From Candidatus Woesearchaeota archaeon (GTDB taxonomy: Archaea > Nanobdellota > Nanobdellia > Pacearchaeales > GW2011-AR1): 57,410 bases of DNA. Where the stretch lies: assembly GCA_964490795.1 (NCBI GenBank), contig CAZBDY010000004.1:1-57410 (forward strand). Reading direction: 5' to 3'. Under the pieces are notes generated by a model. The model was not told the origin of the DNA, did not search any database, and saw only the letters and a program-made list of their open reading frames with translations. This document shows positions 3,293-44,712 of the stretch, piece by piece. Position 1 is the stretch's first letter. Each line of letters starts with the position of its first letter. A program made the translations under genes and the position numbers.

Positions 3293-3541
3293 ATGAATTC
3301 AGTTGAAATATTAAATGTTCCAAGAGGAATGTATAGGGTTTTTGGAAGAGATAATTTTGATAAATCTTTTTTTATAGTTGATGATTATGAAAATCTTCCA
3401 TCAGCAATTGCAGTTGCAAGAGCTCAATTAAAACATGAGAGGAAAATTCATGCTGGTTTAAATGAGGTAACTGCTAGTTTTTATGTTGCAGATGATAAAA
3501 AAAGAATAAAATTCCCCGAAATCAGAGATATTTTAAAATGA
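3293..3541 (+). CDS. Hypothetical protein (82 aa)
   Basis: Intact ORF whose stop overlaps the next start (ATGA), so it is probably co-transcribed. No motif recognised. Confidence 0.4.
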   Translation: MNSVEILNVPRGMYRVFGRDNFDKSFFIVDDYENLPSAIAVARAQLKHERKIHAGLNEVTASFYVADDKKRIKFPEIRDILK

Positions 3542-4833
3542 AAAGCAAAATAGGAATAATAGGGGGAAGTGGATTAGATAATCCAGATTTATTACAAGAT
3601 TATAAAGAGGTGGAAATAGAAACACCATTTGGGAAGCCATCAGATAAAATAACAACAGGCAAAATTAATGATGTAGAGGTTTTTATTTTAGCAAGACATG
3701 GAAAAAAACATCAGTATAGTCCTTCTGGAATTAATTATAAAGCAAATATCTATGCTTTAGCAAAATTAGGATGCAAATACATAATCGCAACTTCAGCAGT
3801 AGGAAGTTTAAGAGAGGATATAAAACCAGGAGATTTTGTGATTCCTAATCAATTGATTGATTTTACTAAACAAAGAAAAAATACTTTTTATGATTCATTT
3901 GAAAAAGAGATAAAACATGAAAGTTTAGCTGAACCTTTTTCTTCTGAATTAAGAGAAAAGTTAATTGAAAATTGTCTTGAACTAAATTTTGGGGTTCATA
4001 AAAAAGCCACATTAATTACAATACAAGGACCAAGATTTTCAACAAAAGCTGAATCTAATTTATTTAGGCAGTGGAATTGCGATATTATTGGCATGACAAC
4101 AGCAACAGAGGCCTCGCTTGCCAGAGAAGCTGGTTTAGAATATGCTTGTGTTTCGATGTCAACTGATTATGATTGCTGGAAGCAGGGAGAAGAAGATGTT
4201 AGTATGGAGATGGTATTAAAAACAATGGAACAAAATGCAGAAAAAGTTAAGAAATTAATTTTAAAAACAATTGAAAAATTTTCATTAAAAGAAAAGGTTC
4301 AAAAAGATATTTTAGAGATTAAAGAGAGTATAAGAACAATTCCTGATTTTCCAAAACCAGGAATACAGTTTAGAGATATTACTACTTTAATGAAAGATCC
4401 ACAAGCATTTAAAAAAACAGTTGAAATTTTATATAATAGATATAAAGAAAGAGAGATAGATGTTGTGGCCGGGATAGAGTCAAGAGGGTTTATATTTGGA
4501 GCAATACTAGCTGAAAAATTAAATTCAAGATTTATTCCTGTAAGAAAACCTGGGAAACTTCCTAGTGAGATAGAAAGACAGGAGTATGAATTAGAATATG
4601 GAAGTGATGCTGTTGAAATTCATAAAGATGCTATTCAAAAAGGAGATAAAGTTTTGATTATAGATGATTTAATTGCTACAGGAGGAACAGCAAGAGCAAC
4701 ATGTGATTTAATTGAAAAATTAGGTGGCAAAATTGAAGAGTGTGGTTTTGTTATTGAATTGCCTGAATTAAAGGGCAGAGAAAAATTAAACAAGTGGAAT
4801 GTTTTTTCTATAGTTAAGTTTGAAGGAGAATAA
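3538..4833 (+). CDS. Fusion protein: S-methyl-5'-thioadenosine phosphorylase (N-terminal) + adenine phosphoribosyltransferase (C-terminal)
   Basis: N-terminal 'IGIIGGSGL', 'ARHG', 'GPRFSTKAES' and 'IIGMTTATEA' indicate MTAP/PNP. C-terminal 'IPDFPKPGIQFRDIT', 'GIESRGF' and PRPP loop 'VLIIDDLIATGGTA' indicate APRT. Junction near nt 4285. Confidence 0.85.
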   Translation: MKSKIGIIGGSGLDNPDLLQDYKEVEIETPFGKPSDKITTGKINDVEVFILARHGKKHQYSPSGINYKANIYALAKLGCKYIIATSAVGSLREDIKPGDFVIPNQLIDFTKQRKNTFYDSFEKEIKHESLAEPFSSELREKLIENCLELNFGVHKKATLITIQGPRFSTKAESNLFRQWNCDIIGMTTATEASLAREAGLEYACVSMSTDYDCWKQGEEDVSMEMVLKTMEQNAEKVKKLILKTIEKFSLKEKVQKDILEIKESIRTIPDFPKPGIQFRDITTLMKDPQAFKKTVEILYNRYKEREIDVVAGIESRGFIFGAILAEKLNSRFIPVRKPGKLPSEIERQEYELEYGSDAVEIHKDAIQKGDKVLIIDDLIATGGTARATCDLIEKLGGKIEECGFVIELPELKGREKLNKWNVFSIVKFEGE

Positions 4834-10201: not shown

Positions 10202-11119
10202 TTATGGTATTTGATATTTATCTTCATGTTCTGAATCAATTCTAAACCATTCAGGTAATCCAGAAACAAGAGAAGAGTCTGGATTTGATGAAGAAAAATA
10301 AATATAATCTATAACACTTTTTTCTTGTGTAGGAATATCCTGAGAAGAGAGTTCAGGAATATAAACAAAACTTTCTATCCCGTTTTCATTAGGACTAATA
10401 ATCCCCTGTAATCTATATAAAAATGAAGGGGCAAGAGGATTTGCTGCATAATTCTTGTTTTCAAGATGTAAGGAGAGATTGCTAACATCAGAATCAGAAA
10501 CATAATTTCCTTTATAAATAGTTTTGTTGATTTTTCTTGTTATCTTTCCATTTGTATTAACAATATAAAAAGGATCTTCAAAATTTTCTATGCTTATTTT
10601 TGAAACAATAAATTCATTTTTATTCCAGGATGCAAGATTTGATTTGTCAGTTAAGTTTAAGGTGGCATTTAAAATAATAGAAATATGCCAGGGGTCAAGT
10701 TGTCTTGCTTTAATACTGATATTTGAAAGGTTAAGGAGGAGATTTATTTTATCAGCTTTTTCCTGAATATCTTGTTTAATTTCAGAGATGGTTATTCCAG
10801 CAAGAATAGTGGATTTATTTCCTTTATAAGTTCCATTATAAACTGCTTCTTGAAATGTTTGTGAAAAATTAGAAATATATTCTCCTGTTTTTGCAACTTC
10901 ATTTTCAGCTAAAAAGATTGTTCTAAACCCAGAGATATATAACTGTCTTTCTAAATTCTCCTCAATTGAAAAAAGAAAAGAATCCATTGTTTTTACTCTT
11001 GTTTTTATTGCTTTTCTTTCATTTAGTGTTGAATAAATCTCATATGAAACTAAAAATAAGAAAAGAAGAGCTATAGCTATTAAGGTAAATAGTTGCCCTT
11101 TTTTGTTTTTCATTTCCAT
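10202..11119 (-). CDS. Pilin-like (class III signal peptide) minor pilus component
   Basis: 'MEMKNKKGQ|LFTLIAIALLFLFLV'. Many N-x-S/T sequons. Overlaps the upstream gene by 10 nt. Confidence 0.55.
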   Translation of the reverse strand: MEMKNKKGQLFTLIAIALLFLFLVSYEIYSTLNERKAIKTRVKTMDSFLFSIEENLERQLYISGFRTIFLAENEVAKTGEYISNFSQTFQEAVYNGTYKGNKSTILAGITISEIKQDIQEKADKINLLLNLSNISIKARQLDPWHISIILNATLNLTDKSNLASWNKNEFIVSKISIENFEDPFYIVNTNGKITRKINKTIYKGNYVSDSDVSNLSLHLENKNYAANPLAPSFLYRLQGIISPNENGIESFVYIPELSSQDIPTQEKSVIDYIYFSSSNPDSSLVSGLPEWFRIDSEHEDKYQIP

Positions 11120-13638
11120 ATTCTGACTTGAACCTCACTTGAATAAGTATAAGGAATTCCTGAAATTTCACTTGATGAAATTTCAAAACTATCTTCTGAA
11201 AATTTAGTATCTATTTTGCCATCAGAATTTAAATCAAGATTAGACAATAATTCATGAATAGAATATTCAATTGCATCATTTTCATTATAAGCAATTGTTT
11301 CAGAGGTATAATGGCAATTAGATGTTCCAGAGTAATTTTTTGGAACTGTAAATGATAGAGTAGAAGAGTCATAAAATTCAACTGTCCAGTTACAGCCAGA
11401 AGCAGAGGCTAAAATAGGAGAATAAGATAAGGCTTGCTTTAATATTTGATAAATAACCTTGTTTGAAGAGGAACCCCCTGAGATATTGGAAGGATTTAAG
11501 GCAGTAGTTATTTTAACTTTATTTTCTCCAACAGAAATATTTTGTGTGGGAATATTAATTGAATAAGGGTCTCCTAATTTAATATATTTAGAACCATATC
11601 TAGAAAGATTAAAAATATTTTTCCAAGAACCATTATTTAAAATTTTAACATTTTGGGTCCATTTAGAACCAGAATATGATATTGCTTTAGCATTTAAGGG
11701 TGTAGAATTTTCTGGAATAGAAAAATTTCCTTCTGAAATATCATTTCCAAAAATGTTTGTTTCAGATGTGGCTATTAAACCATATGGGACACTTGTTTTA
11801 TTATAATCAAATATAATATAAGAGTCAGGATATAATTTTGTATTTAGGTTTGCTTGAATTTCGATTGTTTGTTCACTATAAGAAGCTTCAATTATGTCCT
11901 TTGATATTTCATTATACAAATCAGTTATATTTTCTATATCACTATAATAATAATCTCCATTTCCACAATCAGCTATTGATTGAAGTGTTGATTCATCAGC
12001 TCCTTCTCCAAAACCAACTGCATGAACAGTTATATCATAATCTTCATATGCTTCACATGCTTTATTAATTGCTGCTTGTTTTGCTGAACTTGCCCCATAA
12101 TCTCCTTCACAATCGTAATTTGCTTCTCCATCTGACATAACTACCATTACTTTAATTTTATCATCAGAAGATTGTTCTGTTAAATCTAAAATTGCTCTTT
12201 CAATTCCACAGCAAATACATGTCCCCCCATTAGCAGTCCAGTCATCAATTTTTAAAATTAAAGATTCATTATCACTTGATAAATCATGGCATTTAGGATC
12301 ACTTATACTCCCTCTATAAGCTGTTAGTCCTACCCTGTTTCCAGATAAATTTAAAATAGAATTAACAAATTCTTTATTTGCTTGTTTAGCTAGTGTTAGT
12401 TTTTCTTCCCATGTCCCTCCACAATCTAAACATCCTTGTTCATTACCACAACCAAATATAAAACAACATATTCCTCCCCCTCCATAACAACCATCTTCCA
12501 TGCTTCCTGACAAGTCAGTGACAGAGAAAACATCAACATAATTTGATAGATTAGTCATATATGTAACATTTTCCATTCCCAATCTTAAGGGAATTGTTTT
12601 TTCAGTTAAAGAGTCATAATCAAGTAAAGAAGATAGTTCTGAATTAGAAATTGTTTCTTGAGTTTCTACAGGAGAGGAGGAATTAAAAACTGTGGTATTT
12701 CCTATAATTAGAAAAACACTTTTATTAGAATAATAATGTAAAAATATTTCCATACCAGATAAATTTTGAGGAATATAAAATCCATCATATAAATTTATTA
12801 ATCCTTCAATTCCTGGAAAAGAATATTTTTCTGATTCATTTACAAATAAAGAGGAATTATAAGTTATTTTGAGATAACCTCCAGAAACATAAAGATTTTC
12901 TCCTGAACTATTTTTAGTTATTTTTAGCATATTTTCTCCAGAATTAAATCTTGACAAGTATGAATCAAGAGAGTATTTTGCAGGATGTAAGTCAGAAGTA
13001 GAATTTTCATAATGTCCTGAAAAAACATTATTAATATAAACATCAAAATCATTATTAATAGCAATTTCTAATTCTGCATCTTTTATTGTTCCAGTATAAT
13101 TTACAAGTAAGGAAATGTTTCCATCTCCTACATAACCCCCAAAATAAAAGTATTTTGTTCTGTCACTTTTAGTTAAAAAAGCCCTTGATGAAAAAGCAGT
13201 TGTATCGTTCCCTTTTTGAATTCCAGAAACTAACTGGCGAGAAGTCCAAACTTCGGTTGAATTTTGTAAGCTAGAAGAATTTTTACTTGCTATTAATTCA
13301 TTATTAAACCATATTCCCATATTTGTTTTTGTATTTAAACTATTTAGGATATTTTCAGAAAATTCTTTTGCTTCTGGAAGTGATTTTGCATGTAATTCTA
13401 CGATTTGTTCTAAAATTGTGTTGTTTTCAGATGCTTTTTCTTCGCTAATTAATTGTTTTGCATAGTCATTATCAATCTCATACATTTGTAAAGAAGATAA
13501 AGATGAAATTAAATCTTCTTGAACTGCTTCTTGAATTTCAATTTCTTCTTTAAATGGTTTTACTATCATTAAGACTGACAAGATTATGATTAAAGCTATG
13601 AAAGCATCTAAAGTAAAATAATAGGCTTTTTTGTTCAT
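11110..13638 (-). CDS. Large pilin-like adhesin with von Willebrand factor A domain (TadG/PilY1-like logic)
   Basis: Prepilin-like 'MNKKA|YYFTLDAFIALIIILSVLMIV'. vWA MIDAS 'DLSGSM' (D375) and 'VMVVMSDGEAN'. Dense N-x-S/T sequons. Confidence 0.75.
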   Translation of the reverse strand: MNKKAYYFTLDAFIALIIILSVLMIVKPFKEEIEIQEAVQEDLISSLSSLQMYEIDNDYAKQLISEEKASENNTILEQIVELHAKSLPEAKEFSENILNSLNTKTNMGIWFNNELIASKNSSSLQNSTEVWTSRQLVSGIQKGNDTTAFSSRAFLTKSDRTKYFYFGGYVGDGNISLLVNYTGTIKDAELEIAINNDFDVYINNVFSGHYENSTSDLHPAKYSLDSYLSRFNSGENMLKITKNSSGENLYVSGGYLKITYNSSLFVNESEKYSFPGIEGLINLYDGFYIPQNLSGMEIFLHYYSNKSVFLIIGNTTVFNSSSPVETQETISNSELSSLLDYDSLTEKTIPLRLGMENVTYMTNLSNYVDVFSVTDLSGSMEDGCYGGGGICCFIFGCGNEQGCLDCGGTWEEKLTLAKQANKEFVNSILNLSGNRVGLTAYRGSISDPKCHDLSSDNESLILKIDDWTANGGTCICCGIERAILDLTEQSSDDKIKVMVVMSDGEANYDCEGDYGASSAKQAAINKACEAYEDYDITVHAVGFGEGADESTLQSIADCGNGDYYYSDIENITDLYNEISKDIIEASYSEQTIEIQANLNTKLYPDSYIIFDYNKTSVPYGLIATSETNIFGNDISEGNFSIPENSTPLNAKAISYSGSKWTQNVKILNNGSWKNIFNLSRYGSKYIKLGDPYSINIPTQNISVGENKVKITTALNPSNISGGSSSNKVIYQILKQALSYSPILASASGCNWTVEFYDSSTLSFTVPKNYSGTSNCHYTSETIAYNENDAIEYSIHELLSNLDLNSDGKIDTKFSEDSFEISSSEISGIPYTYSSEVQVRIWK

Positions 13639-28267: not shown

Positions 28268-29221
28268 ATGGAAGAAAAAAATCAAGAGCATTTCCATGTT
28301 TTTAGTAAGGATATTGAAGATGAAGAGGTAGAACATTATGATGTTTGCATACTTGGAGGAGGGCCAGCAGGTTTAACTTCAGCTATATATGCTGCAAGAT
28401 ATGGATTACATACAGCTTTAATTAGTAAAGATGTAGGGGGCATGGCAAATCTTGCTTCAATAATTGAAAATTATCCTGGTTATAAGGGTTCAGGAATGAA
28501 ATTAATGCAAAGTTTTTATAATCAAGCAAAAAATGCTGGAACAGAATTTTTAAATTCAGAAGCAATTGATATTCATAAAGACAAAACAGGATTTATTATT
28601 GAGTTACATGATAAAAAAGTAGTCCATTCTAAAACATTAGTTATTGCTTTAGGAACAGAAAAAAGAAAATTAAATATTGAAAATGAAGATAAATATATTG
28701 GAAAAGGAATAAGTTACTGTGTTGCCTGTGATGCTCCTTTATTTAAACAAAAAGATGTGGCTGTAATTGGGGGAAGAAATTCTGCAGCCAAGGCAGCCTT
28801 AACTTTGTCAAGTATAGCTGAAAAAGTTTATATTATTTATAGACAAGGAAAGTTAAATTGTGATAAAATAGATGAAGAGAAAATTCAGAAAAAAGCAAAT
28901 ATTGAGTTAAAATTAAATTCTGTTCCAAAAAAAGTTATTGGAAAAGATTTTGTTACTGGTTTAGATATTAAAAATGAAACATTAGATGTTGAAGGAATTT
29001 TTATTGAAATTGGAAGCATGCCTGTGAAGGATATAACTACTAAATTAGGGATTAATACAGATGAAAGCGGATACATTAAAGTTAATGCAGAAATGGCAAC
29101 TAATGTAAAAGGAATATTTGCTGCTGGAGATACTATAAAGAGCAAATTAAAACAAATAGTAATATCAGCTGGACAAGGGGCTATAGCTTCTCACTCTGTT
29201 AAAGAATATTTAGAAAGATAA
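28268..29221 (+). CDS. trxB: Thioredoxin-disulfide reductase
   Basis: FAD site 'ILGGGPAGLTSAIYAAR', redox 'CVACDA', NAD(P)H site 'VIGGRNSAAKAA', C-terminal 'GIFAAGD'. Confidence 0.85.
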   Translation: MEEKNQEHFHVFSKDIEDEEVEHYDVCILGGGPAGLTSAIYAARYGLHTALISKDVGGMANLASIIENYPGYKGSGMKLMQSFYNQAKNAGTEFLNSEAIDIHKDKTGFIIELHDKKVVHSKTLVIALGTEKRKLNIENEDKYIGKGISYCVACDAPLFKQKDVAVIGGRNSAAKAALTLSSIAEKVYIIYRQGKLNCDKIDEEKIQKKANIELKLNSVPKKVIGKDFVTGLDIKNETLDVEGIFIEIGSMPVKDITTKLGINTDESGYIKVNAEMATNVKGIFAAGDTIKSKLKQIVISAGQGAIASHSVKEYLER

Positions 29222-37877: not shown

Positions 37878-38318
37878 ATGAAATGTCCTTTTTGCAATCA
37901 TGAAGAGACAAAAGTTACTGATAAAAGAGATGATAGTTCAGAAGGGACAACACGAAGAAGGAGAGAGTGTTTAAAATGTGGCAATCGATTCACCACATAT
38001 GAAAGGCCAGAAATTTTATTGACCATAGTAAAAAAAGATAATTCAAGAGAAGATTATTCAAGAGACAAACTAAAGCAAGGAATAGTAAAGGCTTGTGAAA
38101 AACGTCCTGTTTCAAGAGAGAAAATAGAAAAAATTATTGGACTCATTGAGAGAAAATTAAGAAAAAAAGGAAATGAAGTTCAAAGTAAAATAATAGGAAA
38201 AGAGGTTATGAAAATGTTGAAAAAAACAGATAAAATTGCATATATAAGATTTGCCTCTGTTTATAAAGATTTTAAGGATATCAAGGATTTTAAAAAAACT
38301 TTAAAAGAGTTAAAATAA
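37878..38318 (+). CDS. nrdR: Transcriptional repressor NrdR (Zn ribbon + ATP-cone)
   Basis: 'MKCPFCNHEETKVTDKR...RRRRECLKCGNRFTTYER', then an ATP-cone ('VKKDNSREDYSRDKL'). Confidence 0.9.
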   Translation: MKCPFCNHEETKVTDKRDDSSEGTTRRRRECLKCGNRFTTYERPEILLTIVKKDNSREDYSRDKLKQGIVKACEKRPVSREKIEKIIGLIERKLRKKGNEVQSKIIGKEVMKMLKKTDKIAYIRFASVYKDFKDIKDFKKTLKELK

Positions 38319-38319
38319 A

Positions 38320-41300
38320 ATGGTTAAATTTATTAAAAAAAGAGATGGGAAAATAGATAGGTTTGATAATGATAGAATTGAAAAAGCAATTTCAAAAGCT
38401 GCTTCTTCTGTTGGATATAGTGAAGAAAAAACAAAAAAAATTATTGATTTAGTAACTGATAAAGTTAATAAAAAATATGTAAAAGATATTCCTTCAATTG
38501 AAGATATTGAAAGCATTATTTTAAGAACATTAGAAGAAAAAGGATATAATACTATTTTAAAATCTTATAAAGATTATAGAGATAAAAGAAGAGAGGCAAG
38601 AAGAGTTTTAGCTATTGCTACTAAAGATAAACAAAAAAACACAACAGATAAGGCATTATTAATTGAGTCAGATTCAAAAGAAATTATTGGAGGATGGGAT
38701 AGAAAAAGAGTAGAAAATAATCTTGTTGAAGAAGCTGATTTAACAAGAGATCTTGCAAGAGATATAGCAAAACTTGTTGAAAATATTGTTATTGATATGT
38801 ATTTAAGAGGAGTAAGAAGAATTTCAACAACTGATATAAGAGCAATTGTTGATTTGGTTTTAAGACAAGAAGGATTAGAAAGTCAGAGAAGAAAACAGGC
38901 TCTTCTTGGATTTCCTTCATCTGATTTTGATAATATTCTTATTTCAAGAAGTTTAGAAAATAGTAATGTATCTTCAAACAATCCTGAAGCAGTAAATCTT
39001 GAAACAGCAGAGAGAATACAAAAGCAGTATTCTTTAGAAAGGGTTTTTTCTTCAGAAGTTTCTGAAGCCCATTTAAAAGGAGATATTCATATTCATGATT
39101 TAGGTTATCCTGCCAGAGTCTATTGTTCTTCTCACTCTCTTGAATATATTAAAAAATATGGATTAAATAAAGTTTTAGCAAATTTAGAATCAAAATCAAA
39201 TCCTCCTAATTCTGCTGCTGTATTAAATCAACATGTTCAGACATTTCTTGCTTCAATGCAGGCTCATTATGCTGGGGCACTTGGTTTTGGTTTTTTAAAT
39301 ATATTATATTCCCCTTTAATTAATCGTCCTGTTGAAGTTTGGGAAATTGAATTAAATTCAAAAAAAATGGAGTTTGAAAAAAGAGATTTAGAAAAATTAA
39401 TTGAACAAAGAGTAATTAAAAGTGAAGACATTAAAATAATATCAAAGTCATTTAAATTAAAAGAAATCTCAAAAAGGGAAATGCTTCAGATAGCCCAAAA
39501 TCTAATATTTGCTGCCTCTCAAAATGCGTTTTCAAGAGGAGGGCAGACATTATTTATTGATTTTAATATTCATGCTGGTGTTCCAAAATATATGAAAAAT
39601 GTTCCTGCAATAGGACCAAAAGGGAAATATATGGTTATGAAAAAAGATAAAACAGTTTGTTTAGTTGATGAAGTTCCAAGATACTATAATCCTAAAAATA
39701 AAGATGATCCTAAAAATGGTGATGCGGCCTCTTTTTTACTAAAAGAGGATTTAAAAAATGGAAATATAATTACTTATGGAGATTTAGAAGAAACTAGTCA
39801 AAAATTTGCAATGGCTTTATTAGAGGTTTGGAGAAGAGGAGATAAAAATGGAAGGCCTTTTCATTTTCCTAAATGTGACTTGCATGTTGATGAAGATTCT
39901 TTTTCAGATAAAAAGCAAAGAGAGGTTCTTGATTTTGCTTTTGAAGTAACAAAGGAAAATGGTGCTGTTTACTTTATGTTTGACCGAGGGAATGATGCTG
40001 TTCTTGCACAATGTTGCAGATTAAAAGAAAAAATAGAAGATTCTTCAATGTTAAAATATCCTGAAAAATTAAGATTTTGCGGTTTTCAAAATGTCTCAAT
40101 TAACCTCACTCATGCAGCTTTTAAAGGAGGAGATATAACAGGATTAAAAGAAAATATTGAGAAAGCAATGAATTTCGCATTAAAAGCCCATCTTCAAAAA
40201 TCAAAATTTATGAAAAAACTTTTAGAGACAGATGGAAGTCCAATGAGAGGGTTAGGTAAGGAAAGCGATGATGGGAATCCTTATATTGATTTAAAAAAAG
40301 CCACATATATTATTGGAACTATTGGCTTAAATGAAGCTGTTCAAGTTTTATGTGACGAACAATTGCATGAGTCAGAAGCAGCTTATAGACTGGGGTTAGA
40401 AATAATTTCTTTTGTTTATAAAAAAATAAAAGAATTTGCAAAAAAAACAGGATTAAAATTTACGATTGAAGAAACACCTGCTGAATCTGCAACAAGAAGA
40501 CTTGCAAAAGTTGATTTATCTGGATTTGAACAAGCAGAAAATATAATCAAAGGAACAAAAGAAAATCCTTATTATACAAACTCAATTCATTTTTCTCCTG
40601 ATGCTCCTGTTGGTTTAATTGACAGAATTGTTGGGCAGAGTAATTTTCATGAACTAATTGAGTCAGGAGCAATAATTCATGCTTATCTTGGAGAGAAACG
40701 TCCTAATAAAGATTCTATAAGTCATATAGTTGAAAAAACACTAAAAGACACAAGATGTGCACAGCTTGTATTTTCTCCTACTTATACTGAGTGTGATGTT
40801 TGTGGAAATACTATGAATGGAGACAAAAAACTATGCGATAATTTAGATTGTCCTAATTCAAAACAAGAAACAGTTGATGTAAAAACATTATTTGCAGTTA
40901 CAAGAGTTGTAGGATATTATTCAAGAGTAAGTCACTGGAATGGTTCTCAAAAACAAATATTTGAAGACAGAAAAAATGCAGAAGAGTATTATGCTGGATT
41001 AAAAACAGGGGAAATGTCCTGGCTTCACAACCCAAAAGGAAATGGTAAATTAATAATAAGAGAATTTGCAAAAACAGATTGTCCCAACTGCAGATTATTA
41101 GAAAAACAAATAAAAGAAAAAATAAATTCTCTTGGATTAAATGAAAAAGTTGATTTAAAAATAATCCATTTAGATGACTCTGATGAAAAATCACTTTCAG
41201 AAGCAGCACTATATGGAGTTCCTTTTGATTCTGTTCCAAGCTTAGTTATTGCTGGAAAAAAACAACATTGGAAAAAAACAACTGAATATGGGGCTGATGA

Positions 41301-41415
41301 AAAATGTGAAAAGGGCGTTTGTTCTGTTAATCCTGTTTTAAATGAAAAAACAGAATTAATTAGTCCTGAAGAAGTTGAACTAAAAATAAAGGATTTATAT
41401 TCTGAATTTGAATAA
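38320..41415 (+). CDS. nrdD: Anaerobic (class III) ribonucleoside-triphosphate reductase with N-terminal ATP-cone and extra C-terminal thioredoxin-fold domain
   Basis: ATP-cone 'FIKKRDGKIDRFDNDRI'. Zn site 'CDVCGN...CDNLDCPN'. Glycyl-radical motif 'TRVVGYYSRV' (Gly865, nt 40912-40914). The C-terminal ~135 aa carry 'CPNC' and 'SVPSLVI'. Confidence 0.9.
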   Translation: MVKFIKKRDGKIDRFDNDRIEKAISKAASSVGYSEEKTKKIIDLVTDKVNKKYVKDIPSIEDIESIILRTLEEKGYNTILKSYKDYRDKRREARRVLAIATKDKQKNTTDKALLIESDSKEIIGGWDRKRVENNLVEEADLTRDLARDIAKLVENIVIDMYLRGVRRISTTDIRAIVDLVLRQEGLESQRRKQALLGFPSSDFDNILISRSLENSNVSSNNPEAVNLETAERIQKQYSLERVFSSEVSEAHLKGDIHIHDLGYPARVYCSSHSLEYIKKYGLNKVLANLESKSNPPNSAAVLNQHVQTFLASMQAHYAGALGFGFLNILYSPLINRPVEVWEIELNSKKMEFEKRDLEKLIEQRVIKSEDIKIISKSFKLKEISKREMLQIAQNLIFAASQNAFSRGGQTLFIDFNIHAGVPKYMKNVPAIGPKGKYMVMKKDKTVCLVDEVPRYYNPKNKDDPKNGDAASFLLKEDLKNGNIITYGDLEETSQKFAMALLEVWRRGDKNGRPFHFPKCDLHVDEDSFSDKKQREVLDFAFEVTKENGAVYFMFDRGNDAVLAQCCRLKEKIEDSSMLKYPEKLRFCGFQNVSINLTHAAFKGGDITGLKENIEKAMNFALKAHLQKSKFMKKLLETDGSPMRGLGKESDDGNPYIDLKKATYIIGTIGLNEAVQVLCDEQLHESEAAYRLGLEIISFVYKKIKEFAKKTGLKFTIEETPAESATRRLAKVDLSGFEQAENIIKGTKENPYYTNSIHFSPDAPVGLIDRIVGQSNFHELIESGAIIHAYLGEKRPNKDSISHIVEKTLKDTRCAQLVFSPTYTECDVCGNTMNGDKKLCDNLDCPNSKQETVDVKTLFAVTRVVGYYSRVSHWNGSQKQIFEDRKNAEEYYAGLKTGEMSWLHNPKGNGKLIIREFAKTDCPNCRLLEKQIKEKINSLGLNEKVDLKIIHLDDSDEKSLSEAALYGVPFDSVPSLVIAGKKQHWKKTTEYGADEKCEKGVCSVNPVLNEKTELISPEEVELKIKDLYSEFE

Positions 41416-42163
41416 AATGATTATTAAAAAAATAATACCTGAAAGTAGTATTGACTATAAAGGAGAGTATGGACCTGTAATGTTTTTACAAGGATGTAAC
41501 TTTAGATGTGGTTTTTGTCATAATGCAGACTTAACTGAAAATCAAGGAAATTTAAGTTTAAAAGAAATTGAAAATCTTGATATAAAAGATATGAAGATAA
41601 AATCTAAAAATAAGTGGTATACTGGAATTACTATAACTGGGGGAGAACCACTTATACATAAAAATATTGTTTTTTTATTAAAAAAATTAAAATTAACAGG
41701 ATTAAAAATAAAACTAGATACAAACGGAAGTAATCCTGGCTTATTAAAAAAAGTAATTGATATGAATTTAGTAAATTATGTTGCTCTTGATATTAAATGT
41801 CCAAAAAAAATGTATAAGGAAGTTGCTGGAGTTAATATTGATTTAACTAATATAGAAAAAACAATTAAAATTTTATGTTCATCTAATGTTGATTTTGAGT
41901 TTAGGACAACTTTAATTCCTGTTGTTAAAGAAAAGAGATGGTTAAATGAAAAAGAAATCAAAGATATGGTTAAATGGGTTTATTCTCTATGTAAAAAAGG
42001 AAATTGGTGTTTGCAAGAATTTGTTTCAAGAAGTAAAAATGAAATTTTAAGTGAAGATTATTCTGAGGAATTACTTCCAGGTAAATTAAAACAAACACCA
42101 GAAGATTTATTAATACAAACAAAAAATATAATTAAAGAGAAATTTAATTGTGAGATTGTGTAA
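41408..42163 (+). CDS. nrdG: Anaerobic RNR activating radical SAM enzyme
   Basis: 'GCNFRCGFCHN' (CxxxCxxC), 'GITITGGEPL'. Confidence 0.85.
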   Translation: MNKMIIKKIIPESSIDYKGEYGPVMFLQGCNFRCGFCHNADLTENQGNLSLKEIENLDIKDMKIKSKNKWYTGITITGGEPLIHKNIVFLLKKLKLTGLKIKLDTNGSNPGLLKKVIDMNLVNYVALDIKCPKKMYKEVAGVNIDLTNIEKTIKILCSSNVDFEFRTTLIPVVKEKRWLNEKEIKDMVKWVYSLCKKGNWCLQEFVSRSKNEILSEDYSEELLPGKLKQTPEDLLIQTKNIIKEKFNCEIV

Positions 42164-42585
42164 TGAAAATAAAAATTAAAAAAATCCATCAAGATGCAAT
42201 AATTCCTAAGTACTCTCATAAAGGGGATGCTGGAATGGATATTTATTCTATAGAAGATATAATTTTAGAATCAGGACAAAGAAAAATGATTAAGACAGGG
42301 ATAAGTATGGAGATTCCAGAAGGATATGTTGCTCTTGTATGGGACAAATCTGGATTAGCTGGAAAAAAAGGAATAAAAACAATGGCAGGGGTTATAGATT
42401 GTCATTACAGAGGAGAATATACTATTGTTTTGCTAAACACAAGTAAAGAAAAATATGAAATTAAAAAAGGAGATAAAATATGCCAGATATTAATTCAAAA
42501 GGTTGAATCTCCTGAAATTGAACAAGTTAGTGAATTATCTGAAACAAAAAGAGGAGAAGGAGGATTTGGTTCAACAGGTAGATAA
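42163..42585 (+). CDS. dut: Trimeric dUTP diphosphatase
   Basis: 'GDAGMDIY', 'GVIDCHYRGE', C-terminal 'RGEGGFGSTG'. Confidence 0.9.
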   Translation: MKIKIKKIHQDAIIPKYSHKGDAGMDIYSIEDIILESGQRKMIKTGISMEIPEGYVALVWDKSGLAGKKGIKTMAGVIDCHYRGEYTIVLLNTSKEKYEIKKGDKICQILIQKVESPEIEQVSELSETKRGEGGFGSTGR

Positions 42586-42643: not shown

Positions 42644-44329
42644 ATGTCAGTTAAAAATGGAGTTGAGGAGATTTCAGAAAAAAAGTTTAATGAAATTATT
42701 TCTAAAGATTTAGTTGTTGTTGATTTTTTTGCAGAATGGTGTTTAGAGCCAAATACAAAAGTTATATTCAATCCAGGTTCTGATAATATTAAAAAAGCAA
42801 GACAGGGATTGAAAGTTTTATCTTTTGATAAAAATTTTAGAGAATCTTATGCCAATATTAAATCCTCCCATAACATTATACATAATAAAAAAATCAAAAT
42901 AACCACAAAACGTGGAAGAGAAATAATATGCACTCCAGAACATTTAATACACACTAAAAAAGGTTTTTTAAAAGCCGGGGATATAACTGGGGGGGATTTA
43001 TTATCAGTTTACTTATTCTCAACATATCCTCTTATTAATAACGACAAGAGATTGTTTTTAAGTGAACCTGATATCAAAAAAACTGCAGAAAAGTTAAAAC
43101 TTAATAAAAAAAGATTTATAGAAGAATTAAAATCAAAAAATCTTTTAAATCTTAGGTATAATAATGAAAAGTCTTATGTATTGGCAAACTTGCTTGGGCT
43201 TCTGCTATCTGATGGCTCATTATCTAGATGTAAGAACAATGAAAGAATGGTAGAATTTTTTGTAGACAAAGAATCTGGAAAAGAAGTAATAAAAGATTTA
43301 AAATTTTTAGGATTTGATAGTAGTCTAAGGGAACAGGAAATTGAAGGAAAAATTGGAGAGAGAGTTTTTACTCAAAAAATTACAAGGGTTAGAGTATCTA
43401 AAACATCTCTTTTTATTTTATTTGCTTCTCTTGGAGCAATTATAGGGAAAAAATTTGAATCAGGTTTGGATATCCCTAATTGGATTTTAAATGGTCCAAA
43501 AGGAATAAAAAAGGCATTTTTACAGGGTTTTCTGGGAGGTGATGGACCAAAAATAACAATAGACACAATTAAAAGAAAAAAATGGAAATCATATGATAAA
43601 CAGAATATAAATCCCTTAGAACTTCATTTTTCTAAAAATGCAAAATATAAACCTAGAAATTTTGCTGAAAAATTTTCCAAAGTTATAAATGAATTTGGGG
43701 TAAATATAAGAAAAATAGAAATTAAAAAAGAAAATAGGTATATTAGAAAAGATAAAAAAATTTCTATATTATTGAAAATTTACTTTAATACGGATATTAA
43801 ATCTTCACATGCTTATGCATCTATTGGTTTTAAATATTGTAGTAAAAAGAAAAAAAGTTCTGGATTGGCCAGGGAATTTTTAAAAGAAAAGATAGAAAAT
43901 CTGAAAAAAAACCCTGTAAGTAGTTTTATTCCATATAAAGAATGGCTGAAAAATTATGCTGACAAAAATAACAAAATTATATTTGATAAAGTGGAAAAAA
44001 TTAATAGGGAGAAAAATAGAAATTCTTCTTTTATTTCTTTATCTTTAGATAATGATACAAAAATGTTTGTTGCAAATGATATCATTCAGCATAATTGCAT
44101 GCCTTGTATTATGATGTCTCCTGTTATAGAAGAAATGGCTGAAAAATTTAAAGGTAAAATAGAATTTGCCAAAGTTAATATTGATGATAATCCAGAGTTA
44201 GCTAAAAAGTTTAATGTTATGTCGATCCCTACTTTAGTGATATTTAAAAAAGGTAAAGAAAATAAGAGAATTAATGGGGCAGTTCAGCAAGAACAATTAG
44301 AAGAAAAATTATCTAATCTTGTTAAGTAA
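42644..44329 (+). CDS. trxA: Thioredoxin precursor interrupted by an intein at the CxxC active site
   Basis: Exteins 'VVVDFFAEW' + 'CMPCIMMSPVIEEM...MSIPTLVIFKKGK' join to a 109-aa Trx with WCMPC and a cis-Pro. Confidence 0.85.
   Translation: MSVKNGVEEISEKKFNEIISKDLVVVDFFAEWCLEPNTKVIFNPGSDNIKKARQGLKVLSFDKNFRESYANIKSSHNIIHNKKIKITTKRGREIICTPEHLIHTKKGFLKAGDITGGDLLSVYLFSTYPLINNDKRLFLSEPDIKKTAEKLKLNKKRFIEELKSKNLLNLRYNNEKSYVLANLLGLLLSDGSLSRCKNNERMVEFFVDKESGKEVIKDLKFLGFDSSLREQEIEGKIGERVFTQKITRVRVSKTSLFILFASLGAIIGKKFESGLDIPNWILNGPKGIKKAFLQGFLGGDGPKITIDTIKRKKWKSYDKQNINPLELHFSKNAKYKPRNFAEKFSKVINEFGVNIRKIEIKKENRYIRKDKKISILLKIYFNTDIKSSHAYASIGFKYCSKKKKSSGLAREFLKEKIENLKKNPVSSFIPYKEWLKNYADKNNKIIFDKVEKINREKNRNSSFISLSLDNDTKMFVANDIIQHNCMPCIMMSPVIEEMAEKFKGKIEFAKVNIDDNPELAKKFNVMSIPTLVIFKKGKENKRINGAVQQEQLEEKLSNLVK
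42740..44095 (+). mobile_element. Intein (452 aa) with LAGLIDADG homing-endonuclease domain
   Basis: Cys1 'CLEPNTKVIF', block B 'ICTPEH' (TxxH), LAGLIDADG motifs 'LANLLGLLLSDGSL' and 'FLQGFLGGDGPK', and C-terminal 'VANDIIQHN' followed by +1 Cys. Confidence 0.8.
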
Positions 44330-44382: not shown

Positions 44383-44712
44383 ATGAAAAGAACAAGACAG
44401 GTTGCAGAAGCTTATTTATTTTTAATTGCTAATAGTGTTAAGTCTATGGCTGGAGAAGATAAAAGAGATTTTATTTCTGGATTAGTTGATATATTACAAA
44501 AACAGAGATTTGTTAGAAGAAGTAAAGATGATTCTTTACATCCAAATGATTTAAGAGTTAAAGATATTGAAGATATACCTCAAGATTCTGATAATCCAAA
44601 AGAGAGTGCAAGAGCAATTATAACTATGTTACATCCTTATTATAATGCAGATACTCAAAATCGGGTCCTCAAATATGTTATTAAGGGATTAAAAGAAAAT
44701 TACCTAAACTAA
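44383..44712 (+). CDS. Hypothetical protein (109 aa)
   Basis: ORF only. Confidence 0.4.
   Translation: MKRTRQVAEAYLFLIANSVKSMAGEDKRDFISGLVDILQKQRFVRRSKDDSLHPNDLRVKDIEDIPQDSDNPKESARAIITMLHPYYNADTQNRVLKYVIKGLKENYLN

Follow-up and report, generated by a model that had tools for sequence, protein, structure and literature searches.

A thioredoxin gene of a Candidatus Woesearchaeota archaeon is interrupted at its active site by an insert that is very probably, judging from its sequence and its predicted fold, a class-1, Cys-dependent intein with a monomeric, two-motif LAGLIDADG endonuclease. The gene lies in a stretch of 57,410 nucleotides (contig CAZBDY010000004.1 of assembly GCA_964490795.1), which was analysed as a whole and is called the window below, and the insertion point within the WCMPC active site is between Trp32 and the Cys that follows it. 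The insert had been pointed out in an earlier reading of the DNA letters alone (the sequence-only reading), of which the observation was confirmed and the first interpretation was supported in part. Translation reproduced exactly the open reading frame (ORF) quoted there, 42644-44329: the intein starts with Cys33 at nucleotide 42740 and ends with H483-N484, the last nucleotide being 44095, and the sequence then continues as CMPC.

The insert alone scored above the cut-offs of both the Pfam model Intein_splicing (PF14890; 50.2 bits versus 35.8) and the NCBIfam model intein_Nterm (TIGR01445; 29.3 bits versus 24.5), and the NCBIfam RtcB_rel_intein model matched it over the intein part of the model with an E-value of 8.5e-47. 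The elements from which residues 33-484 had first been recognized as a Hint intein were all present, namely Cys1 (C33), the block-B motif T97-P-E-H100, the terminal His-Asn pair and Cys+1. The last of these, C485, has two roles: it is the splicing Cys+1 and also the nucleophile of CMPC. In the aligned relatives, C33, His100 (30/30), His483 and Asn484 (31/31 for the pair), C485 and C488 (Cys+4) were invariant and Thr97 was present in 29/30, while P487 and P529 were invariant among the intein-bearing relatives. The reading frame of the window copy was intact, with 0 frameshifts or stops.

These findings agreed with the AlphaFold2 (AF2) model of the precursor (mean predicted local distance difference test, pLDDT, 89.7; predicted template-modelling score, pTM, 0.86). 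When this model was used for a Foldseek search, the best PDB matches were endonuclease-bearing inteins, all with a probability of 1.0: TliVMA (7qss, E 3e-17), PhoVMA (7qst), PI-PkoII (2cw7), PI-PfuI (1dq3) and PI-SceI (1lws). In the same model the N-extein forms a strand (residues 7-9), a helix (12-19) and a second strand (23-29), and the C-extein superposed on solved thioredoxins with a root-mean-square deviation (rmsd) of 1.9 Å over 74-77 residues. The structural relatives of the intein were identified through the structure search and not by sequence search: phmmer found no match to the intein among the PDB sequences, and a profile built from 10 intein sequences found only weak matches there, to Hint domains and to PI-PkoII (best E 3e-4).

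The joined exteins make up 109 residues, which the sequence-only reading had taken for a normal-sized thioredoxin. This was borne out by the equivalog model TIGR01068 (122 bits versus a cut-off of 96.8, over residues 11-106) and by Pfam Thioredoxin (PF00085, E 6.6e-31). The AF2 model of the spliced product (pLDDT 87.8) aligned with solved thioredoxins at TM-scores of 0.90-0.92, the value for E. coli Trx (2trx) being 0.92 with an rmsd of 1.3 Å over 108 columns; the closest solved structure was A. fulgidus Trx3 (4xhm). Both the WCMPC active site and the cis-Pro loop SIPT are present in the joined exteins. Thus, a Hint match and a thioredoxin fold were found on the two points that the sequence-only reading had named as open to refutation in silico. 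The window protein resembles the thioredoxins of TIGR01068 and PF00085 in its full-length profile and structural match, its WCxPC motif and its cis-Pro, but differs from the canonical thioredoxin in having CMPC instead of CGPC and in being encoded within an operon for ribonucleotide reductase (RNR) and deoxynucleoside triphosphate (dNTP) synthesis.

We considered the possibility that CMPC was a change of the active site driven by the intein. This was rejected: AEWCMPC was present in 108 of 120 intein-free orthologues, and on sequence comparison this thioredoxin clade, which has intein-free orthologues in Pacearchaeota and Nanoarchaeota, has CMPC as its native motif. Separately, 17 of 32 intein-bearing thioredoxins have a Cys directly after the cis-Pro (SIPC; column 611 of alignment A1), a third extein cysteine near the active site; the window copy is without it, residue 530 being the Thr of SIPT.

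With the precursor as the query, at least 31 further clusters (at 90% identity) were found, which were 46-62% identical to it over the full length. Identical junctions were found in the 26 full-length clusters, with W before the first Cys of the intein and HN before C(M/A/T/P)PC, and the partial clusters agreed wherever they covered a junction. Their source names were 'thioredoxin domain-containing protein [Nanoarchaeota / Pacearchaeota archaeon]', 'thioredoxin' and 'intein/homing endonuclease'. Among 185,579 species-representative genomes, 5 carried the allele (Nanoarchaeota 1, Pacearchaeota 2, Woesearchaeota 1 and Candidatus Omnitrophota bacterium 1). An exhaustive HMMER search with the intein only gave 517 relatives. 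These included a second group, clade B, at 29-37% identity, whose members are inserted at the same site but in canonical WCGPC or WCPPC thioredoxins. When clustered at 50% identity, clade B consists of 9 full-length clusters and no fewer than 6 partial ones. One clade-B copy shared an archaeal contig with the genes for SecY, a histone, L37ae and the exosome, and another (L017) was directly upstream of a gene for a thioredoxin reductase (TrxR)-like protein and a ferredoxin. The next-nearest inteins, at 27-34% identity, had RpoB, RtcB, HerA, ribosomal protein S12, RpoA' and MCM as hosts. A scan of IMG/VR for a viral vector of the allele yielded a partial Hint match of 43 residues only and no thioredoxin intein. 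By these sequence comparisons, the allele is a recurrent, cross-domain family, found in DPANN archaea, in other archaea and in an Omnitrophota bacterium.

Chance can be excluded as the origin of these matches, because the E-values are so low and more than 40 independent homologues have the same architecture. The same comparison bears on whether the insert might be a non-splicing one, the gene then being a thioredoxin pseudogene, or an artefact of assembly. Nothing in the data spoke for either, and both are extremely improbable: more than 40 independent contigs, which come from different samples and sources, show the architecture, the exteins are 70% identical to intein-free orthologues and have lost none of the functional residues of a thioredoxin, and the intact frame contains all the splicing residues. 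We regard this explanation as effectively refuted by the comparative data.

Some members of the wider family are of interest in their own right. A clade-B protein, P0159 (L016 6001-7806), is named 'tRNA-splicing ligase RtcB' by JGI, which looks like an annotation error, apparently because its intein resembles those of RtcB. P0029 (L007 6001-8088; L008 1058-3145) is a thioredoxin-intein precursor with an additional C-terminal ferredoxin-thioredoxin-reductase catalytic domain (PF02943); its gene directly follows that of a small ferredoxin, and the flanking genes in L008 (L28, S12, S7, EF-G) look bacterial. P0180 and P0181 are related LAGLIDADG inteins in ribosomal protein S12/S23, an unusual intein host.

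The distribution of the intein was next set against that of its host. When the joined exteins served as the query, 529 matches were obtained, the best 120 of which were thioredoxins of about 103-138 residues (one of 162), too short to contain an intein and up to 70-76% identical to the window exteins. The window exteins reached 71% identity with intein-free thioredoxins but no more than 64% with the exteins of any other intein-bearing protein. The inteins were more similar than the exteins in 318 of 351 pairs (means 57.8% versus 46.6%), and in the most divergent hosts, the bacterial one included, the inteins were still 52-55% identical when the exteins were only 32-43% identical. The ratio of non-synonymous to synonymous substitutions (dN/dS) was rejected as a measure, the DNA pairs being only 50-60% identical at the protein level and their synonymous sites therefore saturated. 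Conservation of amino acids was determined domain by domain in its place, and the mean pairwise identities were 60.1% for the endonuclease, 57.1% for Hint-N, 60.6% for Hint-C and 46-47% for the exteins. The better conservation of the inteins, and of their endonuclease domain, than of the exteins points to homing.

An empty site was found in a syntenic locus, L014, where the order NrdR-NrdD-NrdG-dUTPase-dCMP deaminase-Trx (107 residues)-RpoH-RpoB-RpoA' is that of the window and trx is uninterrupted. The sequences GATTTTTTTGCAGAATGG and TGCATGCCTTG, which the window intein splits, are contiguous in L014. More generally, the putative homing-site DNA flanked the intein in occupied alleles, and in L014 and L015, which are empty, it ran on without a break. 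An intein-free majority, a patchy spread, a conserved intein and an empty site are, at the level of sequence, the classic signatures of a homing element. Recent arrival from a donor of different composition was also considered and found unsupported, the intein having a GC content of 25.9% versus a window average of 27.9%.

The two LAGLIDADG motifs, which the sequence-only reading had called apparently intact, stood up to comparison. The first, LLGLLLSDGSL, contains D190, and the second, FLQGFLGGDGPK, contains D300; these acidic residues, each closing a LAGLIDADG helix, were present in 30/31 and 32/32 relatives, respectively. AF2 pLDDT values exceeded 90 across residues 141-395, the alpha-beta-beta-alpha-beta-beta-alpha core fold was present twice, and Foldseek matched the domain with a probability of 1.0 to I-DmoI (E 2e-6), the bI3 maturase and I-WcaI. 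PF14528 gave no match in the window copy; some relatives have a precomputed match to it. Most members of clades A and B have an extra segment of about 37-40 residues between the endonuclease and block F (columns ~464-505 of A1). Taken from P0004, this segment scored as a homeodomain-like helix-turn-helix (HTH) module (HTH_23, 27.9 bits versus a cut-off of 24.6). It is absent from the window copy and from 5 others (P0002, P0003 and P0017, which are full-length, and the fragments P0025 and P0032). Because it occurs in both clades, the module is probably ancestral and was lost in the window copy.

Several observations weigh against the interpretation of the insert as an intein with such an endonuclease, or against its spread by homing. 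The Asp of block F could not be assigned with confidence by visual inspection. The profile search that had been suggested for the endonuclease came out negative, no Pfam LAGLIDADG profile exceeding its threshold on the window copy (LAGLIDADG_WhiA, 19.3 bits versus a cut-off of 23.2). The identities of exteins and inteins correlate (r 0.71), which indicates substantial vertical co-inheritance, and much of the spread within DPANN may thus be vertical rather than due to homing. For want of HTH_23, DNA binding by the window endonuclease may be poor, or the enzyme may be without activity. Finally, no second thioredoxin and no second intein were found in the window, which covers 57 kb of the genome, and the organism may have other thioredoxins elsewhere.

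Taken together, the loss of the HTH module, shared with five other copies and affecting what was probably an ancestral part of the protein, and the partial co-variation of extein and intein divergence (the same r of 0.71) raise the possibility that the intein is decaying or domesticated: splicing would work, the endonuclease would be dead after loss of its DNA-binding module, and the element would be fixed as immobile baggage late in a homing cycle. Against this, both LAGLIDADG Asp residues and the motifs around them are intact, no frameshift or stop is present, and the endonuclease domain is strongly conserved as a whole. Moreover, HTH-less copies occur in several sublineages and their endonuclease identity is still about 60%, which implies continued purifying selection. 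We therefore hold this explanation as a tentative one, with some real weight. The earlier suggestion of a possibly active homing element stands for the family; for the window copy, which has lost HTH_23, homing is uncertain.

Assuming that the insert is a splicing intein, the conserved residues suggest the following course of events, which is the canonical class-1 pathway. The 561-residue precursor would be inactive as a thioredoxin until spliced, because 452 residues part beta2 from the active-site helix. The W32-C33 bond would first undergo an N-S acyl shift through Cys33, and the thioester would be handed to Cys485, the future catalytic thiol of thioredoxin. Cyclization of Asn484 and an S-N shift restoring the W-C peptide bond would then yield the 109-residue thioredoxin and the free intein of 452 residues. 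The TrxR-like protein of the window would probably reduce the spliced thioredoxin, which would most likely donate electrons to the adjacent QCCR class III RNR. At the level of the population, the intein would be a selfish homing element whose endonuclease would target the highly conserved junction of GATTTTTTTGCAGAATGG and TGCATGCCTTG in intein-free trx alleles.

In oxidized thioredoxin the CxxC pair forms a disulfide, and trans-thioesterification requires Cys1 and Cys+1 to come close together; going by the sequence CMPC, Cys+4 is one helical turn away from Cys+1. Since all the splicing nucleophiles are thiols and Cys+1 belongs to a CxxC pair, oxidation should stall splicing reversibly. From the sequence, some sensitivity of splicing to oxidants in vitro is almost certain and redox-gated splicing is chemically plausible; such stalling would be a by-product of the chemistry, whether or not it has been recruited for regulation.

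We considered the possibility, already raised in the sequence-only reading, that it serves as an adaptive switch. A Cys+1-Cys+4 or Cys1-Cys+1 disulfide would then gate splicing in vivo, so that new thioredoxin, and hence electrons for the O2-sensitive class III RNR, would be supplied only under reducing conditions; by extension, mature thioredoxin might reduce the trapped precursor, which would amount to a positive feedback. Cys1, Cys+1 and Cys+4 are indeed invariant, the disulfide chemistry of the CxxC pair and the approach of Cys1 and Cys+1 are established, the gene sits in a strictly anaerobic host context (NrdD/NrdG), the finger loop is of the thioredoxin type, and natural precedents exist. 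Yet Cys+1 and Cys+4 are conserved for thioredoxin's own need, and their conservation is no evidence of selection for gating. No additional intein cysteine was conserved throughout the family, the sole candidate, C96, being Ser in 6/30 clade-A relatives and absent in clade B. Furthermore, most orthologues do without the intein, which argues against an essential regulatory role, and the signatures of a selfish element account for its persistence without any benefit to the host. An adaptive switch thus appears unlikely.

The natural precedents are the Pab MoaA intein, in which an extein Cys forms a disulfide with Cys1 in an O2-labile host enzyme (PMC10663303), the Pab PolII intein, with a Cys1-Cys+1 disulfide (PMC5874633), and Msm DnaBi1, a redox-sensitive natural intein (PMC6195587). 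The window intein is like them in having an anaerobic host, an O2-sensitive dependent pathway and, presumably, a catalytic Cys near a possible disulfide partner, but their disulfides and reversible inhibition were shown by experiment, whereas for the window intein they are predictions. Its candidate partner, Cys+4, is part of the catalytic CxxC of the host itself and no extra Cys, and for this reason its conservation is uninformative on gating. An engineered CPGC 'redox trap', in which a thioredoxin-like CxxC at the splice junction controls splicing by redox state, was reportedly described by Callahan et al. in 2011 and 2013, whose work is cited in PMC10663303 and PMC7765530; it is said to join an N-extein Cys to Cys1. 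In contrast, the CxxC of the window protein is natural, lies in the C-extein at positions +1 and +4 and is the active site of the host enzyme itself. One may also imagine a natural, self-reinforcing switch, in which oxidation would lock the precursor by a Cys+1-Cys+4 or Cys1-Cys+1 disulfide and reduced mature thioredoxin (via TrxR) would free it. In an anaerobic DPANN cell this would couple the maturation of the RNR reductant, and with it dNTP synthesis by an O2-labile class III RNR dependent on thioredoxin, to the redox state of the cytoplasm. We consider this quite unlikely; if true, it would make this the first intein whose splice-junction nucleophile doubles as the redox centre of the matured protein.

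The place of the gene in an nrdD-nrdG-dut cluster, proposed in the sequence-only reading, was confirmed with Pfam, which identified NrdR, NrdD, NrdG and dUTPase upstream (Table 1). The link to dNTP synthesis even turned out to be stronger than claimed, given the AQCCR finger loop of NrdD and the recurring linkage of thioredoxin genes with those of class III or class II RNR. NrdD has the glycyl-radical motif RVVGY and, at residue 565, the finger loop AQCCR, which contains two Cys and no Met. After its glycyl-radical domain comes a C-terminal thioredoxin-like domain (residues ~906-981, with CPNC at 921). Judging from its sequence, this fused domain may be an internal redoxin relay that links the active site to free thioredoxin. 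All three elements are present in the NrdD of the intein-free L014, and the finger loop and CPNC domain in that of L003. Finger loops of class III RNRs are of two types, single-Cys MGCR, which uses formate chemistry via Met, or double-Cys, and thioredoxin reduces the disulfide formed by the double-Cys loop of the N. bacilliformis enzyme, which is of the Met-less SCCR kind (PMC9669993). Subtyping of the window NrdD by its PDB sequence matches was rejected, these being too distant, and the finger-loop criterion of that study was applied instead. Being a Met-less double-Cys QCCR enzyme, the window NrdD should therefore need a thiol reductant, with the adjacent thioredoxin as the presumed donor; the sequences suggest that the window thioredoxin probably supplies dNTP synthesis via NrdD.

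RNR-dUTPase-trx synteny was kept in the intein-free L014 and in the intein-bearing L003, L005 and L006, and the RNR linked to thioredoxin was of class III in L003, L006, L014 and L015 and of class II in the contig of P0003. The TrxR-like protein of the window matched the full-length TIGR01292 profile with 307 bits, below the cut-off of 343, and was similar (phmmer E 8e-62) to the product of the TrxR-like gene beside the clade-B thioredoxin intein in L017. Based on these matches, it is probably the reductant of the spliced thioredoxin.

Table 1. Features of the thioredoxin-intein gene, its putative homing site and the associated redox and nucleotide-metabolism genes of the window
Feature	Position	Strand	Basis and remarks
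Thioredoxin precursor gene with intein	42644..44329	+	561 residues plus stop; ORF list, translation, Pfam
N-extein, residues 1-32, ending ...DFFAEW	42644..42739	+	Thioredoxin beta1-alpha1-beta2; TIGR01068, AF2
Intein, residues 33-484, 452 residues	42740..44095	+	PF14890 and TIGR01445 above cut-offs, Foldseek
C-extein, residues 485-561	44096..44329	+	C485 is Cys+1, C488 resolving Cys, P529 cis-Pro
LAGLIDADG homing-endonuclease domain, ~residues 141-395	43064..43828	+	Foldseek, conservation
Linker, ~residues 396-440, site of the missing HTH_23	43829..43963	+	Alignment A1, HTH_23 profile
5' half of putative homing site, GTTGATTTTTTTGCAGAATGG	42719..42739	+	DNA comparison with occupied and empty alleles
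3' half of putative homing site, TGCATGCCTTG	44096..44106	+	DNA comparison with occupied and empty alleles
Intein-less trx target (putative)			GTTGATTTTTTTGCAGAATGG joined to TGCATGCCTTGT
NrdR	37878-38318	+	Pfam
NrdD, class III RNR	38320-41415	+	Pfam, motif search; ATP-cone, AQCCR finger loop, RVVGY, CPNC domain
NrdG	41408-42163	+	Pfam
dUTPase	42163-42585	+	Pfam
Thioredoxin-reductase-like flavoprotein	28268..29221	+	TIGR01292, phmmer

The element is an intein of a standard kind; what is new, within the searchable literature, is its host protein and insertion site. With the archaeal LAGLIDADG class-1 inteins (the RtcB, RpoB, RpoA', MCM and HerA alleles) it shares the Hint and double-LAGLIDADG domains, Cys1, TxxH, HN and Cys+1. 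It differs from them in that its host is a redox carrier of 109 residues, one quarter of the size of the intein, and not a large ATPase or polymerase, and in that a redox-active Cys, part of a CxxC, serves as the +1 nucleophile. Inteins usually insert at the most conserved active-site motif of their host, and this one does likewise. They are best known in enzymes of replication, repair and nucleotide metabolism, and because trx is in the RNR operon the thioredoxin allele still fits the niche of dNTP supply and replication.

The novelty that the sequence-only reading had supposed for this allele was upheld in that full-text literature searches found no description of a natural thioredoxin intein. 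It was not upheld as to rarity, the allele being no one-off and having dozens of unrecognized copies in public databases. Thioredoxin is unmentioned as an intein host in intein reviews and in the main text of the 2016 intein census, and NCBIfam, which has dedicated 'intein-containing' models for RtcB and GyrA, returned none for thioredoxin. To our knowledge, InBase lists no thioredoxin allele. New intein alleles in DPANN genomes would not astonish a specialist. What the family adds is thioredoxin, a small and universal redox carrier, to the list of intein hosts, from which current annotation hides it under such names as 'thioredoxin domain-containing protein', 'intein/homing endonuclease' and even 'RtcB'. 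With Cys+1 inside the CxxC and an easily assayed host of 109 residues, it offers a compact natural system in which to test redox-controlled splicing in nature, and the intein is a possible scaffold for redox-responsive splicing tools. Its well-defined target in one of the most conserved DNA motifs of biology could also interest those who work on LAGLIDADG specificity.

The remainder of the window, which has a GC content of 27.9%, encodes among others RpoH, EF-2 and a ThrRS that has the archaeal editing domain. The taxonomy of the intein family likewise points to a DPANN archaeon of the Pacearchaeota/Woesearchaeota kind. Between trx and rpoH is an ORF of 109 residues (44383-44712, forward strand) that matched no Pfam or NCBIfam model, and the corresponding gap in relatives (L005, L014) holds different genes or none. 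An ORF of 842 residues on the reverse strand (11110-13638) had no Pfam match at E <= 1e-5. Lastly, a fusion protein of 431 residues, encoded on the forward strand at 3538-4833, combines a PNP_UDP_1 nucleoside phosphorylase domain and a phosphoribosyltransferase domain.

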